IMG/VR virus record: IMGVR_UViG_3300034082_001974
Source of the DNA: a virus
Lineage: Duplodnaviria; Heunggongvirae; Uroviricota; Caudoviricetes
Direction: 5' to 3' (one strand)
Length of the DNA stretch: 64,000 bases
In this document: in pieces, positions 29,812-59,459 of the stretch
How the letters are laid out: the number at the start of each line of letters is the position of its first letter
Numbering within the stretch: position 1 is the stretch's first letter
The notes under the pieces: generated by a model
Seen by the model: the letters and a program-made list of their open reading frames with translations, nothing else
Told to the model about the DNA's origin: nothing
Database searches by the model: none
Position numbers and translations under genes: made by a program

Positions 29812-30354
29812 TCAACCTTTATGATTTTTATCAAATGGTGCCTTGAAGTAATGATTTGCCGAACTATGAAATACAATTAAACCTTCAACATTCATAAAAC
29901 CAGGCGAGGCAAGAGAACCTTTTCCTTGGAGTTCATACATTAAGTGATTAATCACAGCAGTATCAAACTCTCCAGTATAAAGAGTAGGAACAACATAGCA
30001 ACATTCTGGTTTGTTTTCTTCATTCCAGATATTTACATTAAACAAGGAGAAACGCTTCTCACCTTTTGGAAGATTATAACCTCGTTGAATACCACTTCCC
30101 CACCATTCTCCGTGATGACGACCAGGACCAAGTTTCATCAGTTCGCTCTTATTTTCAGATGCCCAACGACGAAAACCAAAGTTGTCGGCATCCTCACTCA
30201 ACCAACGATTACGACTGCCGATAAACATATCTCCATCGTCAGTGATGTAGATAAGACCATTGGTTCCGTCAATCTTTTCGGTGACTACGCATTCTTTATG
30301 AAGACGGGGAATCTTGGGAAAGGGAATAAATTCAGGGTAAACAGTTAGACTCAT
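29812..30354 (-). CDS. Rnl2-family ATP-dependent RNA/nucleic-acid ligase, nucleotidyltransferase core only (180 aa)
   Basis: motif [10 protein letters not shown] (KxDGxN), motif IV-like EGLIVF, motif V-like KAPFDK; lacks C-terminal domain. Confidence 0.55.
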
Positions 30355-30676
30355 TAGTTTTGTCTCCTTTAAGTTGATTACAAGTGTAGCACATTGGTTG
30401 AAGATTTTCTAAATCATTTGACCCACCTTTTGATTTGGGGAAAATATGGTCTACAGTCAGTGGGAGAAAATCTTCAGTATAAACATCCCAGTGTTTGGAT
30501 TTACCTTTGTCTATTCCTCTTGCAAGAATAGTTCCTTCAATTCCACAGGAGACGCAGATACATCCTTTTTCAGCGAATACCTTCAGTCGTCTATGTGTTT
30601 TGAAAGGAGAATCTTGAAGAGATGAAATGTCTTTGATTGTATCCAGAGTGTATGAAAATTGTGGAATGAAAGTCAT
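30332..30676 (-). CDS. HNH endonuclease (small, zinc-finger type)
   Basis: [29 protein letters not shown] plus CxxC pairs. Confidence 0.7.
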
Positions 30677-30700
30677 TGAGGGTGCGTTCTTACCCTACTA

Positions 30701-30946
30701 TCATATGGCATCCTGTGAGGCAGTGGAGTCGTCTTGGGACAGTTCTTCAAGTGTCTTTTTGATTTCTTTGAGATTATTCAGGTGTTGCTTTTTCTCTTCC
30801 AAATCAGATTGTAGTTGTGACCTGAACTGATATTCAGATTTATGAATGGGTTCGTAGTTTATTTCTTCCTTAAGGTCAAGAGAAAGTTCTTCCAAGTATG
30901 ATTCAAATTCTTCTATGATATGATTGAGAGTATTAAGGGGTTTCAT
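30701..30946 (-). CDS. hypothetical coiled-coil protein
   Basis: track ORF. Confidence 0.5.
   Translation of the reverse strand: MKPLNTLNHIIEEFESYLEELSLDLKEEINYEPIHKSEYQFRSQLQSDLEEKKQHLNNLKEIKKTLEELSQDDSTASQDAI
30732..30757 (-). promoter_or_regulatory. conserved intergenic element
   Basis: copy 15. Confidence 0.55.
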
Positions 30947-31176
30947 TCAACGTAATAGATTTTTTCTTTTGGTTTTCCAATTTGACGATTCAGAAACTTA
31001 CGAGCACTTTCAATCGTCTCAAACTCTATTTTCTTTGGAAACATATTAAATTCCATAAAAGGAAACCAAAAAAAGATAAACTTTCGCTCTTGAGGAACAA
31101 AAACCATATTACCACTGATATTTTGTTGTTCTATGATCCGATGAGCTTTGAGCATTATCCCACAACACGAACACAA
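30943..31176 (-). CDS. hypothetical protein
   Basis: track ORF. Confidence 0.45.
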   Translation of the reverse strand: MCSCCGIMLKAHRIIEQQNISGNMVFVPQERKFIFFWFPFMEFNMFPKKIEFETIESARKFLNRQIGKPKEKIYYVE

Positions 31177-31469
31177 ACACTAGCTCGTCCTTGATCCACA
31201 GATGCAATTTTAGAAAATGCCCCATAGCTTAGATCAATTCCAGCACCAGAATCATAAGGACCACGATCATTTACTGTCACATATACTTGTCGCCCATTAT
31301 CTTGATTCGTAACCCGGAGACGAGTTCCCATACGATAATAAGGATGAGCAGCAGTATTTGCATAAGCATTAAAGGTCCTTCCTGATGCAGTGACTTGACC
31401 ATGAAATCCGTCACCAACACCATAAAAAGTAGCAATAGTGCAAGTAAGTCCAGCAATCAAAGTAATCAT
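31155..31469 (-). CDS. RlpA-like double-psi beta-barrel (DPBB) protein with N-terminal TM/signal segment
   Basis: GQVTASGRTFN...AHPY...GTRLRVTN...NGRQVYVTVNDRGPY...GIDLSYGAF matches RlpA/3D-domain signature. Confidence 0.55.
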   Translation of the reverse strand: MITLIAGLTCTIATFYGVGDGFHGQVTASGRTFNAYANTAAHPYYRMGTRLRVTNQDNGRQVYVTVNDRGPYDSGAGIDLSYGAFSKIASVDQGRASVCVRVVG

Positions 31470-31522
31470 AAAAATTTAAGTCTCCTTTAGTTTAGTTTTA
31501 TGTTTTGGACGTTGTTGATTTA

Positions 31523-31873
31523 TCAGAGATGTTCTTCAATCAGTTGTGCGATTTCTTCAAATGTTTTGCCGGCATCATTCAACTCAGCAAGGGATAATTC
31601 TTCTTTAATAAGTGGATTTGGCATATCAAGACCCGCCCATTTTTTCACAGATTCAGGAAGAGTAATGGATGCCTCATCAAAATAGTAATAAGTAAATGGA
31701 ATCGCATCTTCGGTAAGTTGAATAATCCATTTATTGCCAGTTTGTTTTGCATAAACATCACACAATACACCAAGACAACAGAATCCGTTAGGAGACCGAA
31801 GATTTCCTTGTGTTTGACTGTATTCGTTGGATCGTAGAGCAGTGACCCATTGTTGCTTGATTTGTGAATTCAT
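31523..31873 (-). CDS. hypothetical protein
   Basis: track ORF. Confidence 0.5.
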   Translation of the reverse strand: MNSQIKQQWVTALRSNEYSQTQGNLRSPNGFCCLGVLCDVYAKQTGNKWIIQLTEDAIPFTYYYFDEASITLPESVKKWAGLDMPNPLIKEELSLAELNDAGKTFEEIAQLIEEHL

Positions 31874-31889
31874 TTTAATAAGTTTCAGT

Positions 31890-32153
31890 TTAATTTACTA
31901 ATAGCAGGAAGGCATCCAAGATCTTTCGCATCTTAGACTTTGGTTTCTCATATGGTCTCTGTTCCCATTCAAGACCATCGGGACCACATTTACCATCTGA
32001 TTTTCTTAGTTTTTCACAGTCTTCTCTCCATGTAGTAACTTCACCTTTCACATAATCAGTTGTATCATATGTGAATTTACCACACCAGGCAAAATAGATA
32101 GTATCTGGATTGATACAGTGCTTGCAAGTAATGCAGGATTTGATTTCAGACAT
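31890..32153 (-). CDS. hypothetical Cys-rich protein
   Basis: track ORF; element 32207-32232 plus TATACTAAACAAGTCAACCAAACA leader. Confidence 0.5.
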   Translation of the reverse strand: MSEIKSCITCKHCINPDTIYFAWCGKFTYDTTDYVKGEVTTWREDCEKLRKSDGKCGPDGLEWEQRPYEKPKSKMRKILDAFLLLVN

Positions 32154-32173
32154 GATGTGTTTGGTTGACTTGT

Positions 32174-32473
32174 TTAGTATAGGATGTCTTGATCGTCTGT
32201 GAGAGACCCTTGTGCCAGTTGATCAGGTGACCTCTTGGCATTCATTTCATCTTCAATTTTACCACGCTCATAGCATCCACTCAGGTACAGTGGAGCAACC
32301 AGAATGCCCATAAGTCCAGCACCACTCGCAAAACCCCTAATATCATTACTCTTATTCAGTCCTGCAAGTCCACCCATAAGAAGAAATGCGATGAGAAGAG
32401 CAGTACCTGGATGATCACCACAGGAATCAAGATGTCCAATTCCTTTGATTGTGCGACGAATTGTTTGAATCAT
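32174..32473 (-). CDS. hypothetical membrane protein
   Basis: track ORF; hydrophobic. Confidence 0.45.
   Translation of the reverse strand: MIQTIRRTIKGIGHLDSCGDHPGTALLIAFLLMGGLAGLNKSNDIRGFASGAGLMGILVAPLYLSGCYERGKIEDEMNAKRSPDQLAQGSLTDDQDILY
32207..32232 (-). promoter_or_regulatory. conserved intergenic element
   Basis: copy 16. Confidence 0.55.
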
Positions 32474-32982
32474 TTGTTATCAGGAACGATGTCGATTTGT
32501 TCAAAAATACCGATACAAATATCACTCAAAAGATTTTCATCCATTTGTCCCATTCGTTCAATCAAAAACCTATTGATTACACTCACCGTAGTTTCAATAT
32601 ATTCTTCATCAGTTTCAATATACTTTACTGCCTCGCCAAGAAGAGCATCGGCAAGTTTGGCAATCGTAGCGTCAGAGAGTTGTTGAGTCATTGCTTTTTG
32701 AGGTTGTTTGAGTTCAATTTTTACAATATCAAGTAGAGACCGTTGCATACTTAGGTCATTAATACCTTCTTGAGTATAAGTAAAAGGTTGACCGCAAGGA
32801 TGTTCAAAACAATATGAATATGAGTGTGCACCATATTTTTTGATTGTCGTCACATACTCTTCATCATTACGAAGAGTAATATAAACTTCCTTATTAACGA
32901 ACTCTTCAAGATTAATCATTTGTTTTTTGTTGTTGTTATTATTTTTATATTCAATTATCTGCATACTGCCAATCACAACCAC
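32470..32982 (-). CDS. hypothetical protein (N-terminal MINLEEFVNKEVYITLRN domain paralogous to 13004..13501)
   Basis: track ORF. Confidence 0.5.
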   Translation of the reverse strand: MVVIGSMQIIEYKNNNNNKKQMINLEEFVNKEVYITLRNDEEYVTTIKKYGAHSYSYCFEHPCGQPFTYTQEGINDLSMQRSLLDIVKIELKQPQKAMTQQLSDATIAKLADALLGEAVKYIETDEEYIETTVSVINRFLIERMGQMDENLLSDICIGIFEQIDIVPDNK

Positions 32983-33391
32983 CAGGAGTGACTACAGTTT
33001 CATTTCCGTCATACTCATCAATTTTGTATATTCCATCAACTTCCTCAATTTGAAGGTCCGCATGATCACCATTTGCTTTCTTTCCAAGTTCTTCTACAAC
33101 TTGAATTAGAGCAGGATCATGACGAGAGACATTCATATAATACCAAGTTTGCTCAGAGTGTGCTTTATTATAAGCAACCCGTTCATCCATAGACATAGCA
33201 CAGAACTCGTTTGAGCTTTTATGTTTGATACGTTCTGCAGGAGAAACTAACCAAACAGTAAACATACCCATGATTTTAGGTTTATTGTCTTCAATCCAAA
33301 CTTGTTGCCCTTTGATGTCCCAATAACGTTGACATGCTTCTTTGCTGAGACCGAAACCACCGTAGCAGTTGTTGTAAACGACTTTTGCCAT
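32951..33391 (-). CDS. hypothetical protein
   Basis: track ORF; element 33448-33473 plus CCCTATACTAT box. Confidence 0.55.
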   Translation of the reverse strand: MAKVVYNNCYGGFGLSKEACQRYWDIKGQQVWIEDNKPKIMGMFTVWLVSPAERIKHKSSNEFCAMSMDERVAYNKAHSEQTWYYMNVSRHDPALIQVVEELGKKANGDHADLQIEEVDGIYKIDEYDGNETVVTPGGCDWQYADN

Positions 33392-33446
33392 GAGTGCTGT
33401 ATGTGTACTTTAATAGTATAGGGTGAATTGAATCAGTTGTCAGTGG

Positions 33447-33647
33447 TCAGTGTGCCAGTTCAATAAGTGTCACATCATAATCCTGCCAGTGAGAGGTGAA
33501 GTAGTTATAATGACTGTCAACGTCTTTTTGATTCATTTCAAGTTCTTTACCCCATCGCTTACACAACCAGTTATTCTCAACGATTAGATAAAACTCATAA
33601 GTCTCTTCATTCTCAAAATCTTTAACTTTGAAGGATTGAGTAATCAT
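33447..33647 (-). CDS. hypothetical protein
   Basis: track ORF. Confidence 0.45.
   Translation of the reverse strand: MITQSFKVKDFENEETYEFYLIVENNWLCKRWGKELEMNQKDVDSHYNYFTSHWQDYDVTLIELAH
33448..33473 (-). promoter_or_regulatory. conserved intergenic element
   Basis: copy 17. Confidence 0.55.
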
Positions 33648-33850
33648 AGTGCTGGTTCAATTCCGTTATCAAGAAAAACATAATCATACCTTTCGCCGTA
33701 TTCTTCACAGAGAGATGCAATCGTATTCTTTCTCATAAATCTACGAGACATTGCTTCTTCGGCAAGTTTGTAAATTTCGTTGTAGTCCAGGTCTTTGCAA
33801 ACTTCTTGAGAAAGAAACTTTGCGAGTTTAAGAGATACTTCAGTACTCAT
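33644..33850 (-). CDS. hypothetical protein
   Basis: track ORF. Confidence 0.45.
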   Translation of the reverse strand: MSTEVSLKLAKFLSQEVCKDLDYNEIYKLAEEAMSRRFMRKNTIASLCEEYGERYDYVFLDNGIEPAL

Positions 33851-34034
33851 TCAAAACCTCCTTATACCTTTTAACTTCGTGATTGCATTTGCTACAGTGA
33901 AGAACCCCATCCCAGTCATCGTGAATACTGGTTTCTTTGTAGTATCCTTCATCACATTTCTCACAATCTTTTTCCATACGGTCAATGTGAGTATAAAAAT
34001 CCAGTTGCTGTTCTGGGTTCATCATTCTCCCCAC
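33840..34034 (-). CDS. hypothetical zinc-finger protein
   Basis: track ORF; CxxC...CxxC. Confidence 0.45.
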   Translation of the reverse strand: MGRMMNPEQQLDFYTHIDRMEKDCEKCDEGYYKETSIHDDWDGVLHCSKCNHEVKRYKEVLNEY

Positions 34035-34279
34035 CCTTCAAAGTATTCTGTAAAGAAACCAAATGCTAAACCAAATTTGTATTGTTGAAAATCTACACTA
34101 AAAAGAGAAGAACCGAAAAAAGAAAACAAGATGTTAATACCACCAGAAGAATGAATTATACCACCAGGAGTTTCATAATTTACCCAAAGTAGTGCTCGGT
34201 TCTTGATAATACCAAACTGCAAAGTGCGATCTACTTCACCATTAGTCCAAATTTTCTTATCAAATTGAAAGAGTTGCAT
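34022..34279 (-). CDS. hypothetical protein (start trimmed)
   Basis: track ORF 34022..34375 overlaps neighbour; TGAAATG junction at 34279. Confidence 0.4.
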   Translation of the reverse strand: MQLFQFDKKIWTNGEVDRTLQFGIIKNRALLWVNYETPGGIIHSSGGINILFSFFGSSLFSVDFQQYKFGLAFGFFTEYFEGWGE

Positions 34280-34280
34280 T

Positions 34281-34574
34281 TCAATATTCCTCAATAAAAA
34301 TGTAACCAACACCACCACAGGTTTCGCAAGGATAAAGATAACATTCACCCCAAGAATACTCTGGGTAATCATCAACTACGAAGTTTGTAGCAAATACTTC
34401 ACTAACATCTTTAAAATCTTCCAGTTCGTTAGGGTCGTCTGCTGAAACATAATGAAGTGTCCAAGATTTTCCGTGAGTTTCGCAATCAGGGCACTTACGA
34501 ATTTCTGTTACACCTTTAATGATGTTACGAAGTTCATCTGCGTCAAGCGTAATTCCGTTTTCAGAGCGTTGCAT
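34281..34574 (-). CDS. hypothetical Cys-containing protein
   Basis: track ORF. Confidence 0.5.
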   Translation of the reverse strand: MQRSENGITLDADELRNIIKGVTEIRKCPDCETHGKSWTLHYVSADDPNELEDFKDVSEVFATNFVVDDYPEYSWGECYLYPCETCGGVGYIFIEEY

Positions 34575-34576
34575 TA

Positions 34577-34837
34577 TCAGTGAGAAAAATAAAGAACTTG
34601 GTCTAGAACATCTTGAATACCTTGTTCGGTGGTAATCAAGTTTGCGGCGACTTTAGATTTGAGATAAGTGTTTGGAGTTTGAATCCAGTGCCTCATCGCA
34701 TCATAATCCCCACCGCACAATGAGTAAAGATGCTTAAAGATTTCAAGAAACTTTACATCATCATACCAATCGGTGACTCCTAAAATTTCACCTGCCTTTC
34801 CAGCAGACTTTTGAAGTAGGTGTTTATCAGAAATCAT
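34577..34837 (-). CDS. hypothetical protein
   Basis: track ORF. Confidence 0.5.
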   Translation of the reverse strand: MISDKHLLQKSAGKAGEILGVTDWYDDVKFLEIFKHLYSLCGGDYDAMRHWIQTPNTYLKSKVAANLITTEQGIQDVLDQVLYFSH

Positions 34838-35703
34838 ACTCGAAATCCGTGTTGTTGTGCTTGGGCGATGATGTTCTCGTAGGAATGAGAAGTCAACTCA
34901 ATATCTCGGTCATACAGAAAATCCTCTGCGTCTTCTGCAAGAGTTTCTTTAGAAACTTTAAGAATACCTTTTTCCAAGTATCCATAATCCCTTGATTCAG
35001 TCACAGATTTAGTTTTCCCACAAACATCGCACTTTCCTGTCCAATGTGAAGAACAACCGACAGAATATTCACCATACTTAGTTCCACATTGGTTACATAC
35101 TTGATATGCTTCTTGAAGAGTCTTCGCAGTAACCGAAGTTTCTGTAGGAAATTCTACGAACATAGGCATAGCATCCAGTTCCTCATCAGTATACTGTGGA
35201 TTATCAGGATTCTGAGTAAGGGAAAGTCGTGCTTCAAGATCTTTGATTTTGGAGAGTGATTCCTCATAAGTTTCCATCAACGATACATAATCTTTACTAC
35301 TATACAACTGCTTATCTTGCAGTTCGTATTCTTCCATCAGTTTATCCAGATACATCTTTTCGTTAGAATCGCTGAAAGCAAGACGACAGGCACCGTCCAT
35401 AATACTGTATTCGGCAAATCCAACAGCACGAAGAAAACCCCGGAAGAGATCATAATATTGATGCACATTTAGATCTTGTGCAGGTGCCTCAATCGTGATT
35501 GTATGCTTATCAACGATTTCTGGGAAATACTTACTCGGAGTTGATTCGGAATCGTTGACGTAAGAAAACTGGACTTTTGCGTTGTAGGACATAATGAGTT
35601 GCGTTTCAATGTAGTTACTATAAAACCCTTGACGGCAAAAGTCAAGGGTTAGTGGGCGGTTCAGAAACTGTCTACTCTCCCCAATACTCATAAAGAAATC
35701 CAT
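34834..35703 (-). CDS. hypothetical protein with C-terminal zinc-ribbon (CNQCG...CDVCG)
   Basis: track ORF 289 aa. Confidence 0.55.
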   Translation of the reverse strand: MDFFMSIGESRQFLNRPLTLDFCRQGFYSNYIETQLIMSYNAKVQFSYVNDSESTPSKYFPEIVDKHTITIEAPAQDLNVHQYYDLFRGFLRAVGFAEYSIMDGACRLAFSDSNEKMYLDKLMEEYELQDKQLYSSKDYVSLMETYEESLSKIKDLEARLSLTQNPDNPQYTDEELDAMPMFVEFPTETSVTAKTLQEAYQVCNQCGTKYGEYSVGCSSHWTGKCDVCGKTKSVTESRDYGYLEKGILKVSKETLAEDAEDFLYDRDIELTSHSYENIIAQAQQHGFRV

Positions 35704-36115
35704 TTGGAGTTGAGTAGTGAATATGAACTACTGTGCTACAACTACGAATATAGGACGAACACACAGGGCAGGGTCTCGCATTTCGTAGTTCTTGTCCTCC
35801 GTGACCACCTACACGACAAACAATAATTGTATCAGCATCTTCTTTTGCTTTTATAAGAACTCGCAACTCTCCGTGAAGGTAGATTTTATTTTCCAGTTGT
35901 GGTTCGTTGAAAATCCTTGCAGCATTCTGTGCCGCCCAATACTGAATTGGGTGAGTAATTTCATAAGAATTTACAGCAGAAGCAATAATACGATTTTTCT
36001 TCAAAAGAATCGCACCAATCTTCTTCGGTGCGTCTGAAGACATAGAAACTGCATATGCTTGCTTAAGTATTTCCCTCTTCAGTGGAGACTTTGTTGCCAA
36101 GATTTGCGATTTCAT
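35672..36115 (-). CDS. cytidine/dCMP deaminase-like zinc-binding protein
   Basis: HGE...PCPVC zinc-binding motifs (H-x-E / PCxxC). Confidence 0.6.
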   Translation of the reverse strand: MKSQILATKSPLKREILKQAYAVSMSSDAPKKIGAILLKKNRIIASAVNSYEITHPIQYWAAQNAARIFNEPQLENKIYLHGELRVLIKAKEDADTIIVCRVGGHGGQELRNARPCPVCSSYIRSCSTVVHIHYSTPNGFLYEYWGE

Positions 36116-36293
36116 TAGAAAGTTCAGTTAGATCGTTTCGGTCTAAAACTATTAAATCATTTTGTGCTGTGTATGTCCTCACATAATCACAGGAGAGTGA
36201 GAGGATTGCAGATACTAACTTTGATTCTGTATCTGCACCAGCATTTCTTGCATCCCACACTCGGGTCATAAACTCTTGTGCTTTGTCACTCAT
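36063..36293 (-). CDS. hypothetical protein (start trimmed to MSDKAQEF...)
   Basis: track ORF overlaps 36286..36915 in another frame; ATGAGTGA junction at 36293. Confidence 0.4.
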   Translation of the reverse strand: MSDKAQEFMTRVWDARNAGADTESKLVSAILSLSCDYVRTYTAQNDLIVLDRNDLTELSNEIANLGNKVSTEEGNT

Positions 36294-36915
36294 TTTCTTT
36301 AATGTTGTAGATATAATGGTTTGAAGTTTCAAATGTTCTTGTGTTTTCCACAGAATATACAGTAGTATCAATCTCATATCCAGGGTTTTTGGAGATGCGA
36401 TTGAATGTCCAAGCACTATCATACCATATAATCCTGTTGTTTGGATAGGCATAATAGTTACCAGTTTCTACCTTGAATAAATGAGCACACTTATGTTCTG
36501 GCGTTTCAGAATAATTGAAATCAGTCATTCCTTTATTCTCAAATCCCCAGTCAAGTGTGAACATATAGTTACCTTGAACTTTAGTATTGTCTGGACGAAT
36601 AAGTTCTGCTTTCAATCCAGCAAGACGATTTCTTCGTTGAACATCAATATAAGAAGAAAAACAGTCCCAATACATTATTTGATTGAGTGGTTCTATTTCA
36701 GCATCAGGTTTCCAACAAAGTGAGTGTAATGGTCTGCGTGTCCAGTTTACGCCATTTTCCAAAAAACACTCAAACAATGGAACTCTTTTTTCCATTGATG
36801 CCACGGAATGAACATCACATTTCGTAACTTCTCCGTGACCTTGTTGGTGATTATATAAAAATTCATTACGAATGTAACAAGACCAATCTGGTAGATTATG
36901 ATTTAGATAAGACAC
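36286..36915 (-). CDS. hypothetical Trp/Tyr-rich protein
   Basis: track ORF. Confidence 0.55.
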   Translation of the reverse strand: MSYLNHNLPDWSCYIRNEFLYNHQQGHGEVTKCDVHSVASMEKRVPLFECFLENGVNWTRRPLHSLCWKPDAEIEPLNQIMYWDCFSSYIDVQRRNRLAGLKAELIRPDNTKVQGNYMFTLDWGFENKGMTDFNYSETPEHKCAHLFKVETGNYYAYPNNRIIWYDSAWTFNRISKNPGYEIDTTVYSVENTRTFETSNHYIYNIKENE

Positions 36916-36918
36916 TAA

Positions 36919-37197
36919 TTAATTCTTCTCAAAGTTGTTTCTAAATTCTTCTAATTTTTCTGGTTCATTAAGAACTGTATTAAGACCATATTGAGCAATA
37001 AATGAATTAAGAACTGGATCGTCTACAGATTCCTCAAGATAAAGTCCACTCACCTTATTGTAGAAGTTCTCAACATCTTCAGTGACATAAGTACCAGTAT
37101 CACTATCTAATCCTGACTTTGCATATGAATATAAGGCATTAGTAAGGATTTCAAGTTCTTGCTCGGACAGTTGAAAAGTAACTTTGTATTGTGACAT
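36919..37197 (-). CDS. hypothetical protein
   Basis: track ORF. Confidence 0.5.
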   Translation of the reverse strand: MSQYKVTFQLSEQELEILTNALYSYAKSGLDSDTGTYVTEDVENFYNKVSGLYLEESVDDPVLNSFIAQYGLNTVLNEPEKLEEFRNNFEKN

Positions 37198-37308
37198 TTG
37201 GTTTAATGTTTTCTTTATTTAGAATCAATTAAGTTTTTTAGGTTTGCTGCACTCATTACACACAGTAGAAAATCCGTACTTAAAGCGTTCGATTTTTTGA
37301 AAGTGTCC

Positions 37309-38106
37309 TTATGACATTCGTATTCTTTTAGAAGTATCTATACCTCTTTTGTTTTGATACCGGGTAAGTGGTCCTGATGTTGATACATATCCAGTTTCAA
37401 GGCACATCCATTTTTGTGAGTTTGTTATTTTACTACCTATTTTACCACCTATTTTACCATTTTCAATTGTTTGTTCTGCAGTTAATCCAAAAATTCCTAC
37501 ACCAAGTTCTTTTGTTTTTTTACCACCCTTTTTATTATATTTTTTACCATTTTCCATTCTTTGTTCTGGGGTAAATCCGCATATTCCTATACCAAGTTCC
37601 TTTGCTTTTTTACCAGCTTTTTTACCATCTTCCGTCATTTGTTCTTTTGTTCTTCCACAAATCCCTGTTTTATTTTCCTTATGTTTTTGTCCTGATATTT
37701 TCCCACCTTTTTTACCATCTTTGGTCATTTGTTCTTTTGTTCTTCCGTGAACTCCTATACCAAGTTCTTTTGTTTTTTTACCAGTTATTTTACCTGAATT
37801 TCTACAAATTTCTAAAGAAACCTTACCACCACAATTTTTATTAAGACACCATTTATCAGTATTATAAAATGATTTAATCAATCTTGTTTCAACTTCTTGT
37901 GCTTTAATCCATCCTTCATCTGTATAAGAAAAGACTTCAAGTATTTGTTTCTTTGCTGTATAAAAATTCCAGCACCACTTATGAGTATATGGGGAACCCC
38001 AGTATTCCTCACCAAACTTCGTTTCCTTATGAACTCCATAGTAATAGTAAGGAACTTCCTCAAAAGTAATTTTGTATATGTAAATTCTTGGACTTTGTGA
38101 AGTCAT
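37309..38106 (-). CDS. GIY-YIG homing endonuclease with expanded NUMOD3-like repeats (paralog of 16486..17157)
   Basis: N-terminus 90% identical to first copy for ~100 aa; >=6 GI(G/C/H)G(R/L)TKEQ modules; same upstream hairpin. Confidence 0.65.
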   Translation of the reverse strand: MTSQSPRIYIYKITFEEVPYYYYGVHKETKFGEEYWGSPYTHKWCWNFYTAKKQILEVFSYTDEGWIKAQEVETRLIKSFYNTDKWCLNKNCGGKVSLEICRNSGKITGKKTKELGIGVHGRTKEQMTKDGKKGGKISGQKHKENKTGICGRTKEQMTEDGKKAGKKAKELGIGICGFTPEQRMENGKKYNKKGGKKTKELGVGIFGLTAEQTIENGKIGGKIGSKITNSQKWMCLETGYVSTSGPLTRYQNKRGIDTSKRIRMS

Positions 38107-38153
38107 CGTTATTCTATAAGAACTGCATTATTATTTATAAAAGTTTATAATAG

Positions 38154-38173
38154 AAAAGGTGCCCGGAAGCACC
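38154..38173 (-). terminator. hairpin GGTGC-TTCCGG-GCACC + TTTTCT, upstream of second GIY-YIG gene
   Basis: duplicate of 17197-17216. Confidence 0.35.
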
Positions 38174-38217
38174 TAATCTTGTCCGTAGAGAATTGCAGTT
38201 CCTATAGACAATATTAT

Positions 38218-38451
38218 TTATTCATCTATTTTAATAGGTTTATCGCAAGAATTGCAATAATAACTAAATCCAGTCTTAAAGTATTTAACTGACTGAAAGT
38301 TTTCCAAATTCAGTGGTTTGGTTTCTTTGCACCGAGAACAAGTTCGTTCAGCGGGGAGTGATGATAATGTCTTTTGCACCTTGAGTTTTGATGTGATTTT
38401 CCCAAAAAATCGCTCCCTCCAGGTCAAGAAAAATTGCAGTGTGCTGAACAT
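38218..38451 (-). CDS. hypothetical zinc-ribbon protein
   Basis: track ORF; CSRC...CNSC. Confidence 0.4.
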   Translation of the reverse strand: MFSTLQFFLTWRERFFGKITSKLKVQKTLSSLPAERTCSRCKETKPLNLENFQSVKYFKTGFSYYCNSCDKPIKIDE

Positions 38452-38490
38452 AAGTTTTTTTCTTTGGTTTGAGATAAATGACTTCGTATT

Positions 38491-38676
38491 TCATTTTTCG
38501 CTTTCTTTGAGTAGTTTAATTTTATCAAATTCTTTGGGATAAATCAAGATGCATACCTCTTTCAGTCTTTCTTCTGGATACTTATTAATACAAACTGTAA
38601 TGTACGAGTTACATATAAACTGAATAGTACCAACATAATCTTTATACTGAACCACAAGACCTTCATAAAATGTCAT
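38491..38676 (-). CDS. hypothetical protein
   Basis: track ORF. Confidence 0.45.
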   Translation of the reverse strand: MTFYEGLVVQYKDYVGTIQFICNSYITVCINKYPEERLKEVCILIYPKEFDKIKLLKESEK

Positions 38677-39365
38677 TGAAACCTCTTTAGAACCTTATTG
38701 TTAATATCATAAAGACCAAGAGCGCCATCAGGAGAACCACACTCTGGATCCAATACAATAGAGTTTTCATTCATAAAAACTGTATGATAATGACCCGAAA
38801 CAAGTACATAATCTTGTGTTCGGTTGTTCTTCCACCATTCAATTCTTTGCTTTTTTTCTCGCTGAATTGGACCGTAGAGCATTGTAGACTTTGTGGATCT
38901 ATTCAATCTATCTTCATATATTAGACAATAATCATCATACTCAGGAACTTCAATACGACTTGAAAAGTATGCGTGTGCAACTCGGTATTCTATTTGATTT
39001 TTATCCTGAAATACCACACCATAAGGCATTGTATTAAGAAACTCATACAATTCTTCCAAAGAAATATTAGAGTTCTCAAAGTCATTTAGAGTTCTTTGAA
39101 GATCTTCACCAATAAAAACGTTATTACCTTTTAAATGACGGAGTAATTTGTTTTGATGATTGGATTGAAGACAAATCGCAGAGTTATTCTCAATTTGTTC
39201 TTTGACCTGATTATATACGGAAACGGAGTTAGTGTTTTCTACACGAGAATCAAATAGGTCTCCCAGAAACAATGGAGTTAAATTGTGATTAATACAATAC
39301 TCCAGTGCAGATTTCAGTAAATGTGCCTGAGAATGCACATCACTGATTAATGCAAATGACTTCAT
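38673..39365 (-). CDS. calcineurin-like metallophosphoesterase
   Basis: ISDVHS, GDLFDSR, SNHQ, VSGHYH motifs; terminator then TATAAT upstream. Confidence 0.65.
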   Translation of the reverse strand: MKSFALISDVHSQAHLLKSALEYCINHNLTPLFLGDLFDSRVENTNSVSVYNQVKEQIENNSAICLQSNHQNKLLRHLKGNNVFIGEDLQRTLNDFENSNISLEELYEFLNTMPYGVVFQDKNQIEYRVAHAYFSSRIEVPEYDDYCLIYEDRLNRSTKSTMLYGPIQREKKQRIEWWKNNRTQDYVLVSGHYHTVFMNENSIVLDPECGSPDGALGLYDINNKVLKRFQ

Positions 39366-39400
39366 TGAATTTTTCTTGGTTATGAAAACATTATACCATA

Positions 39401-39426
39401 AAAAAGAGGGTCTTGAGAACCCTCTG
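39401..39426 (-). terminator. intrinsic terminator AGAGGGT-TCTCAAG-ACCCTCT + T6, immediately followed by TATAAT
   Basis: 7-bp stem, T6; sits between conserved element (39423-39447) and -10 box (39391-39396). Confidence 0.6.
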
Positions 39427-39447
39427 TGTGCCAGTTTGAAAAGTGGT
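39423..39447 (-). promoter_or_regulatory. conserved intergenic element
   Basis: copy 18 (followed by terminator). Confidence 0.55.
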
Positions 39448-39452
39448 TTTAA

Positions 39453-40127
39453 TCAACGAAGTCCATATTTTTTGATATCTGCTTGTGCATCATCTCTTGC
39501 TTGAAGTTCTTTACCTTTTCTATATTCGCTACCAGATCCTGCTCTATTTTTTCTTGCTTGTGATGTTGAACGCTTACGCCATTCTGGTGTATCCACCATA
39601 TTAGAAAGACTACGAAGAATAATTTCTTTATCACCACCAAGTTTTTTTGCCTGTCTTTCAATTTTACCACGATTCATTTTTTTGAATCCCTCATCAAGAA
39701 CTTCTTCACAAATACTCTCCTTCCAATCTTCACTCATATTCGCCATAATAGCAGTTGCTGACTCTTCAGTATCAGCATAACCTTCATCAAGAAGATGTGT
39801 GAGGATTAGGTCGTAGAGGTCTACTTCTTCTTTTCTAGTGTTCCCATGAATTGGTTCCAGTCCTCGTCTACGACGGGATTTATTACCAGCACCTCTGTCT
39901 CCAAAATCAGAATATCTTTCTCCTTTGCCACCTGTTGATTTTTTATCTCGTGGACGTTCATCGCGAACTCCAACATTAAAAGCAGTGGCACGATCTCTTG
40001 ATGATACATATGGACTATGTTGTTTTGCAATCATCTTGTCCTTACGAGGACCATCCATCATTGCCTCATCAAGTTCATAAACACCTTGATATGCGTCTAG
40101 AAGATCTAGAAATTCTCTTGCGTTCAT
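39453..40127 (-). CDS. hypothetical charged protein with EGYAD...MANMSEDW domain
   Basis: track ORF; paralogous domain with 8715..9062. Confidence 0.55.
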   Translation of the reverse strand: MNAREFLDLLDAYQGVYELDEAMMDGPRKDKMIAKQHSPYVSSRDRATAFNVGVRDERPRDKKSTGGKGERYSDFGDRGAGNKSRRRRGLEPIHGNTRKEEVDLYDLILTHLLDEGYADTEESATAIMANMSEDWKESICEEVLDEGFKKMNRGKIERQAKKLGGDKEIILRSLSNMVDTPEWRKRSTSQARKNRAGSGSEYRKGKELQARDDAQADIKKYGLR

Positions 40128-40184
40128 TTTACAAATACGTTTTAGGTATTTATAAAAAAAAGAATCCTCTCTTTTTGAAGTGGA

Positions 40185-40598
40185 TCATCTATTTTTATTT
40201 AATCTTTCTACATGCTTTTTATTTAATCTTTCTACATGCTTTTTATGTCCCTCTTCATCTCTATAAATGTGTCTACCGGGAACTGTTAGGTTATATCCAA
40301 GTCTATCTTTTCCACCATGCCATTTATCTTTTCTTAAAAATTTATCAGCATTTTGTTTAGCAAAAGTCCTTTTACCTTTTTCAGTTTTCTTTTCTTTAAA
40401 TCCCTTTGATTTTTGTTGAGGTCCAATAACCTTAATTGCAGTTATCATATTACTAAATCTACTATCAGAGTCCCTTTCACCACGCTCTCTTTTAGCTTTA
40501 TCTCTTGCAAGATGTCTCTTCATTTGAGATTGCATTTTAGGTTCATTCATTGGCTTAAATGCTTCAGCAATCATCATAAACTCCTGAAAGGTTTTCAT
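40185..40598 (-). CDS. hypothetical basic protein with internal KKHVERLN tandem duplication
   Basis: track ORF; 21-bp direct duplication at ~40200-40245. Confidence 0.5.
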   Translation of the reverse strand: MKTFQEFMMIAEAFKPMNEPKMQSQMKRHLARDKAKRERGERDSDSRFSNMITAIKVIGPQQKSKGFKEKKTEKGKRTFAKQNADKFLRKDKWHGGKDRLGYNLTVPGRHIYRDEEGHKKHVERLNKKHVERLNKNR

Positions 40599-40655
40599 AT
40601 TAACAAATACTTTTTAGATATTTATAAATTTTAATCACTCAAATAGATTCCCATA

Positions 40656-41111
40656 TTATCCTCTAATAATAGTATCAAAACCCTCCTCGTTTGTTGGAAG
40701 TTCATATTCTTTTATCATTCTCTCAAGGACTTCTGGTGGAATGACTTTACCTGGTCTTTGGGTATTTCTTTTGAGTGCTGTTTCTAATGATACCACAAAG
40801 TACACTGCTGTTTTTTTATAAGTATCTGGAATATGCTTAAGTTTCTCACGTCTTTGCTTCTTGGTCAAATTTGTTTGATCCCAAATTATACTCTTACCAT
40901 CTTCTATTGCTTGCCTAAGAACCTTCATCATAGCAATCTGTGCGAACCTTATGTTTCCTTTAAAAACAGTATTATAAGATTGCTGGCGTTCTTTTGCGAC
41001 CTCTTGAAGAATGTCATCAGAAGAAACGCGAACATATTTTTTGTATTTTGGATCATTGGAGAAGGTTGATTTTCCTGCAGTAGGAATGCCAACAAGCATT
41101 ATCAGTTCCAT
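40656..41111 (-). CDS. P-loop kinase, polynucleotide 5'-kinase-like
   Basis: Walker A GIPTAGKST at N-terminus; 151 aa; overlaps and follows RNA ligase gene. Confidence 0.55.
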   Translation of the reverse strand: MELIMLVGIPTAGKSTFSNDPKYKKYVRVSSDDILQEVAKERQQSYNTVFKGNIRFAQIAMMKVLRQAIEDGKSIIWDQTNLTKKQRREKLKHIPDTYKKTAVYFVVSLETALKRNTQRPGKVIPPEVLERMIKEYELPTNEEGFDTIIRG

Positions 41112-42262
41112 TTCAAGTTACCCCACATCCAACGAGCACTTTCAATTTTCGTTTGGGAACTCAAAGATTTTCCAATCATTTTTATCAATACCTCTTGAGA
41201 ACCTTTACCCGCTTTCATTTCATACATTATAGGAACATATTTAGTCAGCAAGATTTTCTGGACGAACTCAACAGCGAAGTCTTTCTTATCAGGATACTTT
41301 GTATTTCCAGTCACAAAGAGTTCCGCCAAATCACAGGCAACGTCTTCCAGACCCACCCAGAATGCCCTCTCAAAAGAGCGTAGGCGTTGAGCGTCCTCTG
41401 GTGTCAGCAGCGGCACCAAATCGTCTACAGAGTCGTCTAGGATGGTCTGAAGGACATTCTTCTCCTGACTGATGCTGTCTTTGGAGCGGTGGCGAAGCAC
41501 ATAATCATCTGCCTTGATCTTAATCATATGACCAGAATCAAAACGAATTACCACACCCTCCAAGTCTTCCCATTTACGGATGTGTTCTACAATCTTGGTG
41601 ATGTCTTTGTCATCACCAGCAATTGCTTTGACTATAGGAATATTCCATGATTCGGTATATCGCTTCATAATATCATAGGGAACATATTCACCAGTATTTA
41701 AATAACGAATGCCAGTCAGAATCAGTTGATCTTCAGGATAATCAATGACAATACGATTCTTACGAGAGCACCATTCAAAAATAGGAGTGGTTCCCTTTTG
41801 GATACATTTATTAATAAAGGTGGAATAGTGTGATTTATCAGAAATGAACGCTTCTGCTTGTTCAGAAATATCAGTAACACCTGCCTTGGTTGCGAGGAGG
41901 AAACCCTCTTTGGTGGAAATATGACGAATCATGGATCCATCAAGTTTCTCTAGAACAACGTGAGGTTCATACAGATTGATTCTATTCAGTTGAGTTTCTT
42001 CCTTCTCACCAGCATTAAAGAATTTATTGTATGGTCTTGAAATAAGAACTCCATTATCATCAAAAATCAAACCACGACATTCCCGACGAACAGAAGAACC
42101 TACAGGGTCATTAGAGTCCCACTTAAAGGTTTCCTCAAGTGCGACCATATACTGAATTACGGTGTAACCTTCTTTCTCCATTACCCGGAACTCATCTCTA
42201 CCTTCAATATGAGGAAGAACGTCATGAATGGTTTTAATTTCTGGGAAGTCGTAATTCATCAT
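41102..42262 (-). CDS. RNA ligase, Rnl1 (T4 RnlA)-like
   Basis: motif I EKLDGS, motif IV EGVVIRF, motif V KIKADDY; 386 aa; terminator then TGCTATAAT upstream. Confidence 0.7.
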   Translation of the reverse strand: MMNYDFPEIKTIHDVLPHIEGRDEFRVMEKEGYTVIQYMVALEETFKWDSNDPVGSSVRRECRGLIFDDNGVLISRPYNKFFNAGEKEETQLNRINLYEPHVVLEKLDGSMIRHISTKEGFLLATKAGVTDISEQAEAFISDKSHYSTFINKCIQKGTTPIFEWCSRKNRIVIDYPEDQLILTGIRYLNTGEYVPYDIMKRYTESWNIPIVKAIAGDDKDITKIVEHIRKWEDLEGVVIRFDSGHMIKIKADDYVLRHRSKDSISQEKNVLQTILDDSVDDLVPLLTPEDAQRLRSFERAFWVGLEDVACDLAELFVTGNTKYPDKKDFAVEFVQKILLTKYVPIMYEMKAGKGSQEVLIKMIGKSLSSQTKIESARWMWGNLKWN

Positions 42263-42289
42263 TACTTTGATTTATAAGGTCATTATAGC

Positions 42290-42316
42290 AAAAAAGGAGG
42301 GCGTTGAAACCCTCCT
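42290..42316 (-). terminator. intrinsic terminator AGGAGGG-loop-CCCTCCT + T6, followed by TGCTATAAT
   Basis: 7-bp stem, T6; between element 42313-42339 and extended -10 42282-42290. Confidence 0.6.
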
Positions 42317-42339
42317 TGTACCAGTTTAAAAATTGTCTA
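42313..42339 (-). promoter_or_regulatory. conserved intergenic element
   Basis: copy 19 (followed by terminator). Confidence 0.55.
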
Positions 42340-50788: not shown

Positions 50789-50815
50789 TGCTTGTGACGG
50801 TTTGTGGAGTGGTTC
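50789..50815 (-). promoter_or_regulatory. conserved intergenic element
   Basis: copy 24. Confidence 0.55.
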
Positions 50816-58679: not shown

Positions 58680-59459
58680 TCATAAAACCTCTTGAACTTT
58701 ATTTTTAATTTTAAGTATTCTATTACTCCACCATTTCCTTACATCTTGAGAACTTACTTTACTATCTAGAGTATTTAATACATCACTCCAAGTTTCGGCA
58801 AAAATCCAAGGAGGATTGTCTTCATATTTGAAAGTATTTTCTATTTCTTTTTGTATTCCAACTACAATAGGAATTGCTCCATTCATTGATGCCTCATAAA
58901 GACGAAAACAATCCAGAGAAGAATTACCACGACCACAAGGAACAAAAGTAGATTGAGAATATACTTTACACATTAGTTCTTTTGATAATGAGTCTCCAAT
59001 CATATAAGGTGTAATTTGACGAAACTTACTTATCATTTCCACTCTATCCGTTTTAATTGAACCAAAAAAAGACCATTTTAAATTTTTATCTTCTTCAAAA
59101 ACTTTACAACCATTTGTATAACCAAGAGGTATGTGTAAAGTATTTGAAGTATATTTATATTCTGGATGATGATATTGTCTTAAAAATAATTCACATTCAT
59201 TTCCAAGTTCATTGTAGATTGAATTATTATCTTGATAAAATTCATCAGACAGCATAATAATAATCTTTGGTCTAAGTCTTTGTATCGTAGATTTTATATT
59301 TGAAAAATTATGAACTCTACAAGAAAAAGCAAAAACCTCACATTTAGATTGAGTATTTTCTAAATTTGAGGTATTTACATATTCAACATTTCCTTTTGGT
59401 AATATTTCATTTAACAAAAAGTCAGTTTCCCATAATCCAGTTTCAAACACATAATTCAT
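58680..59459 (-). CDS. putative glycosyltransferase (exostosin/GT47-like C-terminal region)
   Basis: FRLYEASMNGAIPIV resembles GT C-terminal catalytic region; weak. Confidence 0.35.
   Translation of the reverse strand: MNYVFETGLWETDFLLNEILPKGNVEYVNTSNLENTQSKCEVFAFSCRVHNFSNIKSTIQRLRPKIIIMLSDEFYQDNNSIYNELGNECELFLRQYHHPEYKYTSNTLHIPLGYTNGCKVFEEDKNLKWSFFGSIKTDRVEMISKFRQITPYMIGDSLSKELMCKVYSQSTFVPCGRGNSSLDCFRLYEASMNGAIPIVVGIQKEIENTFKYEDNPPWIFAETWSDVLNTLDSKVSSQDVRKWWSNRILKIKNKVQEVL

Follow-up and report, generated by a model that had tools for sequence, protein, structure and literature searches.

A probable RNA end-healing and end-sealing module of three separate genes in a large phage

We analysed a stretch of 64,000 nucleotides of phage DNA (the window), the closest cultured relatives of which are Kyanoviridae-type Synechococcus phages, and found on its minus strand three genes that quite probably constitute an RNA end-healing and end-sealing module of a large phage, the RNA most plausibly being tRNA. 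The most likely reading is that a ligase, a kinase and a bacterial-type 3'-phosphatase, encoded by separate genes, would jointly mend cut tRNA. The cassette is a split version of a repair system already known and not a new kind, and its concept is present in earlier literature: the ATP-dependent RNA ligases of jumbo phages come with polynucleotide kinases and phosphatases, a few of the latter being calcineurin-like (PMC7824862). An initial annotation had grouped the ligase, the kinase and a calcineurin-type phosphatase as a healing-and-sealing set, and this core proposal is upheld by conserved synteny and by a three-domain fusion protein. All four open reading frames that it named are real and lie on the minus strand, their coordinates and motifs agreeing with the ORF list and a motif check, and the HMM E-values for the Rnl1-family ligase, the kinase, the phosphoesterase, a further 180-aa ligase and an HNH protein are far past chance.

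41102..42262, minus strand: Rnl1-family ATP-dependent RNA ligase, 386 aa, the putative sealing enzyme (PF09511, phrog_562, TIGR02308, 2c5u)
40656..41111, minus strand: P-loop kinase, 151 aa, predicted 5'-OH polynucleotide kinase (AAA_33, KTI12, phrog_505, Walker A)
38673..39365, minus strand: stand-alone binuclear metallophosphoesterase, 230 aa (4j6o, TIGR04075, AF2/Foldseek, family invariants)

The three putative repair proteins

Profile and structure matches assign each protein to a family, or relate it to one at the level of the domain, and judged by alignment the catalytic residue sets are complete. The 386-aa protein belongs to the ligase family of T4 Rnl1, and the KLDGS, EGVVIRF and KIKADDY motifs on which this assignment had first been made are all present (EKLDGS, residues 105-110; LEGVVIRF, 234-241; IKIKADDY, 247-254). 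It matches PF09511 (E=1e-32), phrog_562 (E=8e-72, residues 26-370), the T4 Rnl1 structure 2c5u (E=1e-24), TIGR02308 (E=6e-41, under the equivalog cut-off at 140.8 versus 242 bits) and also phrog_8238, a family of kinase-metallophosphoesterase-Rnl1 fusions. T4 residues R54, K75, F77, K99, G102 and K119 correspond to R63, K80, F82, K106, G109 and K126 of the ligase, and T4 E159, E227, G228, K240, K242 and Y246 to its E163, E235, G236, K248, K250 and Y254. T4 Rnl1 has a second, unrelated activity in tail-fibre attachment, so the presence of the ligase is by itself no proof of a repair role.

Its matches place the 151-aa protein among the P-loop kinases of the polynucleotide-kinase/PSTK clade, and we predict it to be a 5'-OH polynucleotide kinase. 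The Walker A motif (GIPTAGKST) and the overlap with the ligase gene were both as first described; the kinase gene begins before the ligase gene has ended, and the 10-nt overlap (common sequence ATGGAACTGA) is consistent with co-expression. A dNMP or adenylate kinase had been named as the identity that would speak against repair, and adenylate kinase was matched at E=0.0065 only, the best matches being AAA_33 (E=3e-22), KTI12 (E=3e-13), the structures of PSTK (3a4l, E=5e-8) and T4 Pnk (1ly1, E=1e-5), and positions 9-137 of the bacterial Pnkp model (E=4e-9). The kinase also matches phrog_505, 'polynucleotide kinase' (E=2e-18), phrog_8238 and, weakly, the Pnkp1 kinase in the PDB (4xrp, E=0.026), and Ser-tRNA(Sec) kinase scores slightly above T4 Pnk. 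All 13 homologues in the alignment have D32 and D78, R115 of the RN motif is conserved and R119 is not invariant. In an alignment with the kinase domain of T4 Pnk the protein matches at Walker A, at the general-base Asp and at the RNxxR lid, but T4 Arg38 has no equivalent, its position being occupied by Leu35.

From its sequence and a structural model the third protein is a predicted RNA 2',3'-cyclic phosphodiesterase/3'-phosphatase with the motifs SDVHS, GDLFDSR, SNHQ and GHYH. Its sole match in a PDB sequence search was 4j6o, the phosphatase domain of CthPnkp (E=3e-6; identity about 22%). It matches TIGR04075 at positions 224-325 (E=2e-12) and no PHROG family. For the repair proteins, matches to curated equivalog models were all far under the cut-offs (46 versus 750 bits for Pnkp). 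With the AF2 model (pLDDT 94) as the Foldseek query, 4j6o was again at the top (E=1e-11, TM 0.77; next best 1e-7), a fold match some four orders of magnitude better than that to ApaH or lambda phosphatase and also ranking above PP1. The suggestion that the phosphatase is calcineurin-type, as in bacterial Pnkp, and not HAD-type as in T4 thus agrees with both the best sequence match and the best fold match, and the competing identity of a Ser/Thr protein phosphatase ranks behind CthPnkp. The family invariants D9, H11, D36, R41, N69, H70, H131, H192 and D206 coincide with the nine CthPnkp residues reported as essential (PMC3675462), where the phosphate-binding His, here H70, determines 2',3'-cyclic phosphodiesterase activity.

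Proposed pathway and known repair systems

The substrates of the three enzymes and the order of their reactions, as we infer them, would be the following. A metal-independent ribonuclease would cut an RNA, most plausibly a tRNA, after which the phosphoesterase (38673-39365) would open the cyclic phosphate and then strip the phosphomonoester to give a 3'-OH, the kinase (40656-41111) would add a phosphate to the 5'-OH, and the Rnl1-family ligase (41102-42262) would close the break via ligase-AMP and AppRNA. No tRNA gene was found within the window.

By analogy, the purpose may be to undo a host tRNA-cleaving defence, since the action of T4 Pnkp and Rnl1 against PrrC is, to our knowledge, the sole demonstrated biology for such an enzyme trio. 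That these T4 enzymes counter PrrC is stated in PMC1920235. It is unlikely that the module acts instead on phage or host RNA outside counter-defence (in transcript processing or repair, or RNA quality control), or that the Rnl1 homologue is mainly a tail-fibre attachment catalyst after the second activity of T4 gp63, given that the ligation residues are intact, Y254 (T4 Y246) included, and that the PrrC precedent points towards repair. What speaks for such a role is the name of phrog_562 ('RNA ligase and tail fiber protein attachment catalyst'), the fact that no host nuclease is identifiable, and the many lineages in which the phosphoesterase is paired with Rnl5-type ligases, the characterised examples of which seal duplex nicks and not tRNA loops.

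The proposed counter-defence module resembles T4 Pnkp and Rnl1 in combining a 5' kinase, a 2',3'/3' phosphatase and Rnl1-type sealing, in being phage-encoded and in the clear homology of the ligases. In T4, however, kinase and phosphatase make up one protein, the phosphatase part being a HAD (DxDxT) domain, whereas the window has a lone kinase and a separate binuclear metallophosphoesterase, and no HAD domain was found within it. With CthPnkp of the bacterial Pnkp-Hen1 system the kinase and phosphoesterase share the first two modules of the Pnkp model (9-137 and 224-325), and the phosphoesterase its best fold and all nine essential residues. On the other hand, bacterial Pnkp is one polypeptide that includes a ligase module and depends on Hen1, while the window encodes three polypeptides and an Rnl1-type ligase, with no Hen1-like gene detected within it. 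The bacterial Pnkp1-Rnl-Hen1 complex (PMC4411300) is a precedent for a ligase split from the healing enzyme, but Pnkp1 still unites kinase and phosphatase, and Hen1 is indispensable; the system in the window is split further and lacks Hen1.

Gene linkage, fusion proteins and the intergenic gap

Clustered at 90% identity, the homologues of the phosphoesterase gave 25 groups, of which 24 were informative, and in 20 of these 24 lineages an Rnl1 or Rnl5-like ligase lies on the same strand no more than 5.6 kb away. A kinase is found within 1.3 kb in 11 lineages and is often directly adjacent. In close relatives the three genes sit side by side, and at loci whose phosphoesterases are 48%, 73% and 96% identical to that of the window, Rnl1, kinase and phosphoesterase are contiguous or nearly so. 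The ligase partner changes family (Rnl1 versus an OB+PF09414 Rnl5-like protein) while the phosphoesterase remains. Counting against a joint module, Rnl1 is 36 kb distant from the phosphoesterase in Synechococcus phage B3/B23, although an Rnl5-like ligase adjoins the latter, and in three lineages, one of them that of the cultured phage S-CBWM1, the 10 kb around the phosphoesterase contain no ligase.

The same three domains also exist as a single polypeptide. One viral locus (L044) encodes a 743-aa AAA_33-Metallophos-RNA_lig_T4_1 protein to which the kinase, phosphoesterase and ligase of the window align colinearly at 24-28% identity, and 130 cultured phage records contain homologues of it. Such fusions make up phrog_8238, are about 740 aa long and are present in, for example, Brochothrix phage A9 (gp147), SPbeta-like Bacillus phages and Staphylococcus phages. 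They have the same three domain families, ordered as in the Pnkp layout, but unlike the genes of the window they form one polypeptide and belong to phages of Firmicutes and Fusobacterium; no biochemical characterisation of them was found in the papers searched. Linkage kept among divergent phages, together with the fusion, argues that ligase, kinase and phosphoesterase belong together.

The phosphoesterase had been described as lying about 1.3 kb downstream on the minus strand behind a terminator and a promoter; the distance from the kinase stop to its start is 1291 nt, and terminator-like and promoter-like signals are both present. The gap is a variable insertion slot, and we suggest that an insertion of two unrelated ORFs parted the phosphoesterase gene from the ligase and kinase, leaving it with its own promoter-like site. 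The features of this region, all on the minus strand, are:

42294..42317: terminator-like hairpin upstream of the ligase start (9-bp stem, 5 GC pairs, T run)
40603..40626: 24-nt element TATAAATATCTAAAAAGTATTTGT, repeat copy 1, just 5' of the 137-aa insert ORF
40185..40598: inserted 137-aa basic ORF in the kinase/phosphoesterase gap, outside the repair set, absent here in relatives
40131..40154: 24-nt element TATAAATACCTAAAACGTATTTGT, repeat copy 2, just 5' of the 224-aa insert ORF
39453..40127: inserted 224-aa ORF in the same gap, outside the repair set, absent at this position in relatives
39390..39425: terminator-like hairpin (39425-39405) overlapping a promoter-like site (39419-39390), 5' of the phosphoesterase
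38491..38676: 61-aa ORF overlapping the phosphoesterase stop, conserved downstream neighbour (phrog_522, E=7e-16)

The 224-aa ORF has no Pfam match; its position is taken by no ORF in L003, a 60-aa ORF in L001 and a 194-aa ORF in L129, and segments homologous to it are found elsewhere in other phage loci. The 137-aa ORF (38 K+R against 18 D+E) matches no Pfam or PHROG family. Only two copies of the 24-nt element occur within the window, the chance expectation being 0. In L001-L004 and L007-L012 a homologue of the 61-aa gene comes directly 3' of the phosphoesterase; L005, L006 and L013 have one no more than 2.5 kb away, and in L129-L131 the phosphoesterase is likewise followed by a gene of 61 aa.

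The hairpin 5' of the phosphoesterase has a stem of 8 bp with a T run behind it, and the promoter-like site reads TTCTCA-18-TATAAT with TG upstream (10/12 matches). This terminator sets the phosphoesterase transcriptionally apart from the ligase and kinase, which counts against a joint module. It would fit a phosphoesterase outside RNA repair, whether an Ap4A hydrolase (PrpE/ApaH-like), a lambda-type protein phosphatase or a phosphodiesterase destroying cyclic-nucleotide defence signals, whose proximity to the ligase and kinase would reflect only the clustering of phage early or accessory genes. A weak match to PrpE (NCBIfam, E=4e-7), next-best folds that are ApaH, lambda phosphatase and Ap4A hydrolases, public annotation of the homologues as 'ser/thr phosphatase', 'prpE' or 'PhoS', and the three lineages with no nearby ligase all lean the same way. 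We nevertheless consider this quite improbable: the Pnkp phosphatase is the top match by sequence and by fold, linkage to a ligase survives the change of ligase family, the same domain sits between kinase and Rnl1 in one polypeptide, and PADLOC gave no matches.

The 180-aa ligase-family protein and the HNH gene

29812..30354, minus strand: 180-aa nucleotidyltransferase-only ligase-family protein, unlinked to the cassette (PF09414, phrog_548, TIGR02306)
30332..30676, minus strand: 114-aa free-standing HNH endonuclease (PF01844, E=3e-12)

With the motif EKIDGTN and matches to PF09414 (E=4e-12), phrog_548 (E=2e-27) and TIGR02306 (DraRnl, E=1e-4), the 180-aa protein is a catalytically complete representative of a very large family of phage-borne proteins that consist of the nucleotidyltransferase domain only. 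It has at least 7986 homologues, nearly all of 176-200 aa, in which K27, D29, E83, E157, K171, C118 and C119 are invariant. The description of it as minimal Rnl2-like holds for the absent C-terminal domain; in affinity the protein is no further from Rnl5 (DraRnl/NgrRnl), which carries its accessory domain at the N-terminus, than from Rnl2. Its AF2 model (pLDDT 90) finds NgrRnl (1.3e-5) and T4 Rnl2 (2.5e-5) as best folds, and K27, D29, E83, E157 and K171 are spaced as K170, D172, E227, E312 and K326 of NgrRnl. It shares the nucleotidyltransferase fold and catalytic residues with Rnl5 (DraRnl, NgrRnl) and T4 Rnl2, but is without the N-terminal OB module of the former and the C-terminal domain of the latter, and differs from both in a single invariant motif V lysine and an invariant Cys-Cys pair. 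Its inclusion in the repair toolkit was not borne out: Rnl1 and kinase lie within 6 kb of a homologue at only 1 of 80 loci, and no conserved neighbours of this ligase were found.

The HNH gene is probably a mobile homing-type endonuclease gene. It does overlap the 180-aa ligase gene, by 23 nt, but the overlap is incidental: the HNH gene is missing from relatives whose ligases are 81-91% identical. That the two form a functional pair within the same repair toolkit, as a split form of jumbo-phage HNH-Rnl2 fusions, is very improbable despite the overlap and the related HNH genes at other positions in or beside the repair cassettes of other phages, because HNH adjoins the ligase in 0 of 80 related loci, a relative with a 91% identical ligase has an unrelated 86-aa gene in its place, the ligase keeps no fixed neighbours, and the position of the HNH family varies among genomes, as is typical of mobile endonuclease genes.

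Gene layout of the window

Features of the ligase, kinase and phosphoesterase cassette and of the mini-ligase locus
42317-42294: terminator-like hairpin, preceding the ligase gene
41102-42262, minus strand: Rnl1 ligase, 386 aa, with the motifs EKLDGS, LEGVVIRF and IKIKADDY
40656-41111, minus strand: kinase, 151 aa, with the Walker A motif GIPTAGKST at its start
39425-39405: terminator-like hairpin upstream of the 230-aa gene, overlapping a TTCTCA-18-TATAAT site at 39419-39390
38673-39365, minus strand: phosphoesterase, 230 aa, with the motifs SDVHS, GDLFDSR, SNHQ and GHYH
30332-30676, minus strand: HNH gene, 114 aa, with a 23-nt overlap with the mini-ligase gene
29812-30354, minus strand: mini-ligase, 180 aa, with the motif EKIDGTN

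All of the open reading frames (ORFs) called in the initial annotation were recovered on the minus strand at these positions. The ligase and kinase genes overlap by 10 nt and share the sequence ATGGAACTGA, the kinase ATG lying within the final ligase codons. In overall character the window resembles an accessory region of a phage, with almost all genes on one strand, a GC content of ~36% and a phage-like gene content (helicase, dCMP deaminase, multidomain glycosyl/methyltransferases). Both a tRNA scan and an Rfam scan of the window returned zero matches, so it contains neither a tRNA nor a Y-RNA-like partner. The PADLOC defence models gave nothing beyond weak generic HNH matches, and Hen1, RtcB, HAD, 2H, Macro, Tpt1 and RlaP domains were absent from the 83 other window ORFs. 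When the cassette was compared with cultured phages by megablast, the only match was 97 nt of Synechococcus phage S-SRM01, which was uninformative.

The glycan and modification gene set of the window is unusually rich for a phage. At 50815-54878 and 59456-61621 (minus strand) are genes for very large proteins of 414, 940 and 721 aa in which methyltransferase, family-2 glycosyltransferase, TPR and DUF6445 domains are combined, and sulfotransferase and 2OG-Fe(II) oxygenase genes are found elsewhere in the window. At 34577-34837 (minus strand) an 86-aa protein carries an Xre/MbcA/ParS C-terminal antitoxin domain (PF09722, 35 bits, above the cut-off) that is also present in the related phage loci L003 and L129. 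No recognisable toxin gene is adjacent to it, and the protein may be a phage-borne antitoxin against a host toxin.

The three enzymes and their relation to known systems

Judged by its sequence, the 386-aa protein is a full-length Rnl1 homologue. It matched PF09511 (E=1e-32), phrog_562 (E=8e-72, residues 26-370) and the T4 Rnl1 structure 2c5u (E=1e-24), and Rnl1 motifs I (the KxDG lysine), III, IV and V are all present, with K106 (in EKLDGS), E163, E235-G236 and K248 plus K250 equivalent to T4 K99, E159, E227-G228 and K240 plus K242, respectively. The N-terminal elements specific to Rnl1 were also kept, R63, K80, F82 and K126 corresponding to T4 R54, K75, F77 and K119 in a phmmer alignment to 2c5u. 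The all-helical C-terminal domain of Rnl1 is the source of its tRNA specificity; the Pfam model of this domain (PF20819) scored 24.4 bits against a gathering score of 27, phrog_562 and TIGR02308 were colinear with the ligase to residues 370 and 358, and T4 Y246 has its counterpart in Y254, while equivalents of R318/K319 are not among the aligned residues. Since TIGR02308, an NCBIfam equivalog model, scored 140.8 bits and thus fell below its cut-off of 242.25, we regard the ligase as a homologue and not as a curated equivalog.

By its profile matches the 151-aa kinase is placed in the AAA_33/KTI12/PSTK/polynucleotide-kinase clade, and it matched phrog_505 (‘polynucleotide kinase’), the kinase domain of T4 Pnk and, in the model of bacterial Pnkp, positions 9-137. 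A kinase of the dNMP or adenylate type, considered at the outset as the alternative, is disfavoured by these Pnk and Pnkp matches, adenylate kinase reaching only E=0.0065. The protein has the Walker A Lys/Ser (K14/S15), the Asp general base (D32), the Walker B-like Asp (D78) and the RxxxR lid (R115 and R119) of a T4-type enzyme, D32 being identical in 13 of 13 aligned homologues and Walker A, D78 and the RN motif likewise conserved. In T4 Pnk, R38 binds the substrate phosphate; at this position, three residues after the catalytic Asp, the window kinase has L35, and among homologues an Arg is found only in the group formed by the related loci L032, L034 and L036. The protein is a kinase only, without a fused C-terminal HAD (DxDxT) 3'-phosphatase.

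The phosphatase had been described as calcineurin-type, as in bacterial Pnkp, and not of the T4 HAD type, and this description agrees with both sequence and fold, no HAD domain having been found. [quoted passage not shown] When its AlphaFold model (pLDDT 94) was searched with Foldseek, 4j6o was again the top fold (E=1e-11, TM 0.77), with ApaH, lambda phosphatase and PP1-type enzymes at ~1e-7 or worse. Nine residues invariant in 20 family members (D9, H11, D36, R41, N69, H70, H131, H192 and D206) pair one-to-one and with similar spacing with CthPnkp D187, H189, D233, R237, N263, H264, H323, H376 and D392, all of which are essential in that enzyme (PMC3675462). Among the family invariants is the phosphate-binding His that in CthPnkp determines 2',3'-cyclic phosphodiesterase activity (PMC3675462). 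The phosphoesterase family gains a specific, testable predicted function, and free-standing 3' end healing of the bacterial Pnkp type is predicted to be widespread in large aquatic phages. The practical value of the finding lies in re-annotation, as cultured phage records of the family (including Synechococcus phages S-CBWM1 and B3/B23 and Pseudomonas phage PA5oct) are labelled hypothetical protein, ser/thr phosphatase, PrpE or PhoS. Overlapping the phosphoesterase stop codon is a 61-aa ORF (phrog_522; 38491-38676, minus strand) whose position downstream of either the phosphoesterase or the ligase is conserved across relatives; it may belong to the module as a fourth member.

The cassette would work in the same manner as Pnkp plus Rnl1 of T4, but it cannot be classed as a T4-type Pnkp, the kinase being unfused and a HAD domain being absent from the 83 other window ORFs. 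Its kinase and phosphoesterase share homology with the first two modules of bacterial Pnkp, in which kinase, phosphatase and ligase form one polypeptide of ~850-870 aa. However, it is not a bacterial Pnkp either, since it comprises three polypeptides and an Rnl1-type ligase and the window lacks Hen1, no match to this 2'-O-methyltransferase having been obtained in the neighbouring ORFs or the 83 further ORFs of the 64 kb; TIGR04075, whose cut-off is 750 bits, gave scores of 35 and 46. The three domains of the kinase-MPE-Rnl1 fusion phrog_8238 are homologous to and colinear with the cassette proteins, but the fusion is a single polypeptide, whereas the cassette consists of separate genes with two unrelated ORFs between kinase and phosphoesterase. 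Pnkp1-Rnl-Hen1 offers a bacterial precedent for partial splitting (PMC4411300), and a jumbo-phage survey describes ATP-dependent RNA ligases as occurring together with polynucleotide kinases and phosphatases, the phosphatase apparently being calcineurin-like in a few phages (PMC7824862). In light of this precedent and this survey, we consider the cassette a fully split form of an already known system type.

Linkage of ligase, kinase and phosphoesterase across phages

Because the window phosphoesterase lies 1.3 kb off, behind a terminator, functional linkage is the key question. The order Rnl1, kinase, phosphoesterase is kept in metagenomic relatives whose phosphoesterases are 48%, 73% and 96% identical, with the interval between kinase and phosphoesterase holding a 60-aa ORF, no ORF and one 194-aa ORF, respectively. 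From this differing content we take the 137- and 224-aa ORFs of the window to be an insertion into a variable slot; they were ruled out as module components, the relatives having none, one or different ORFs. A 24-nt element (TATAAATAyCTAAAAmGTATTTGT) occurs in exactly two copies in the window, at 40131-40154 and 40603-40626 (both minus strand), each stopping a few bases short of the ATG of one inserted ORF. The element contains TATAAATA, the consensus of T4 late promoters, and may be the mark of a mobile cassette made up of a promoter and a gene.

Phosphoesterase homologues in IMG/VR formed 25 clusters at 90% identity, 24 of them with enough flanking sequence. A same-strand ATP-dependent RNA ligase, scored as any ligase and not by type because iterated Rnl1 and Rnl5 HMMs may cross-hit (locus L012 is Rnl5-like by HMM and Rnl1 by tblastn), lies ≤5.6 kb from the phosphoesterase in 20 of the 24, and a kinase homologue lies ≤1.3 kb from it in 11. 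Depending on lineage, the ligase partner is either Rnl1 or an OB+PF09414 protein (DraRnl-like, Rnl5-type). The cultured Kyanoviridae phage B23 encodes gp24 (Rnl5-like), gp27 (phosphoesterase) and gp28 (HNH), all annotated as hypothetical. In the related loci L018 (6072-6614, 7055-8527) and L029 (8802-9311, 13794-15272), which represent phosphoesterase lineages with the ligase farther away, we observed a Macro-domain protein and a ~490-aa DUF2828/DUF7788 protein.

On the viral contig L044 a single 743-aa protein carries AAA_33 kinase, Metallophos and RNA_lig_T4_1 domains in that order, and the three window proteins align colinearly with it. Homologues of this fusion were found in 130 cultured phage records, mostly annotated ‘RNA ligase’, with carriers including SPbeta-like Bacillus phages, Staphylococcus phages and Brochothrix A9 (gp147). 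A linkage that outlasts a change of ligase family, combined with the three-domain fusion, is strong evidence that ligase, kinase and phosphoesterase would act in one pathway, and the proposal of the initial annotation that this trio forms a healing-and-sealing set is supported by linkage in 20/24 clusters and by the fusion.

The model with the best support is the classic healing-and-sealing route: homology of the domains, their catalytic residues, gene linkage and the fusion are shown here, and we infer the substrates and biological role. The metallophosphoesterase would convert a 2',3'-cyclic phosphate end to a 3'-OH, the kinase would convert the 5'-OH to a 5'-phosphate, and Rnl1 would then seal the break. 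By analogy with T4, whose Pnkp and Rnl1 counter PrrC, the module may counter host tRNA-cleaving nucleases. The healing enzymes are modular, their ligase partner coming from one or the other of two families, a modularity which suggests that these phages face RNA-cleaving defences, presumably in cyanobacterial or other aquatic hosts. Phage RNA repair as a known concept is unchanged by the finding.

The mini-ligase and HNH genes

The mini-ligase belongs to a family of at least 7986 homologues, almost all of those among the matches listed being 176-200 aa in length. Cultured carriers include Caulobacter giant phages and many mycobacteriophages, in whose records the protein is annotated ‘RNA ligase’. 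Nucleotidyltransferase motifs I, III, IIIa, IV and V are present, with K27, D29, E83, F102/F105, E157-G158 and K171 invariant and the spacing of K27, D29, E83, E157 and K171 like that of NgrRnl K170, D172, E227, E312 and K326. Only one motif V lysine (K171) is invariant, the second one varying, and the family also has an invariant Cys-Cys pair.

This protein had been called a minimal Rnl2-like ligase. Rnl2 consists of a nucleotidyltransferase domain and a C-terminal domain required for nick sealing, and the latter is indeed missing, the mini-ligase ending 9 residues past K171 of motif V. The specific tie to Rnl2 did not hold, as NgrRnl (Rnl5) and T4 Rnl2 were almost tied as best folds; the NCBIfam match was to the DraRnl model. 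Rnl5 in turn consists of an N-terminal OB-like module and a C-terminal nucleotidyltransferase domain. The mini-ligase lacks this module as well, with only 26 residues before motif I, and it gave no match to PF21189, which the Rnl5-like ligases of the related loci L005, L021 and L023 do match. On these comparisons it would be best described as nucleotidyltransferase-only, rather than specifically as a truncated Rnl2.

Membership of the mini-ligase in the repair toolkit was not borne out, Rnl1 and kinase being found within 6 kb at 1 of 80 related loci and its neighbours not being conserved; the commonest genes near its homologues encode a DNA methyltransferase, DNA polymerase and SSB. The family is the least explored element of those described here. 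If self-sufficient, the mini-ligase would be much smaller than any ligase known to us as characterised. Two readings are put forward tentatively, and we consider them rather doubtful: that the mini-ligase is a self-sufficient polynucleotide ligase or works with a partner in trans, and that the stand-alone kinase and Pnkp-type phosphoesterase are a portable healing pair, combined interchangeably by phages with tRNA-specific Rnl1 or nick-sealing Rnl5-type ligases.

The overlap of the mini-ligase and HNH genes, pointed out in the initial annotation, appears incidental, since none of 80 related loci shows this adjacency, nor does a relative with a 91% identical ligase. On the same grounds a split HNH and mini-ligase fusion was rejected, and the genes flanking the mini-ligase are not conserved. 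Related 158-aa HNH genes lie between Rnl1 and kinase in the loci L007 (~9100-9210) and L012 (~8650-8750), and related HNH genes directly follow the phosphoesterase in L022, L025-L028, L035 and L125 (phage B23 gp28, 5679-6155). One HNH family is recurrent beside or inside the RNA-repair genes of different phages, and its varying positions are the behaviour of a mobile homing-type endonuclease, which suggests one prone to land in RNA-repair cassettes. A 265-aa ORF at 37309-38106 (minus strand), which had no Pfam or PHROG match, has by eye a GIY-YIG-like N-terminus (IYIYKITF...YYYGVHK) followed by repeated lysine-/glycine-rich segments, and may be a second homing-endonuclease-type gene near the repair cassette.
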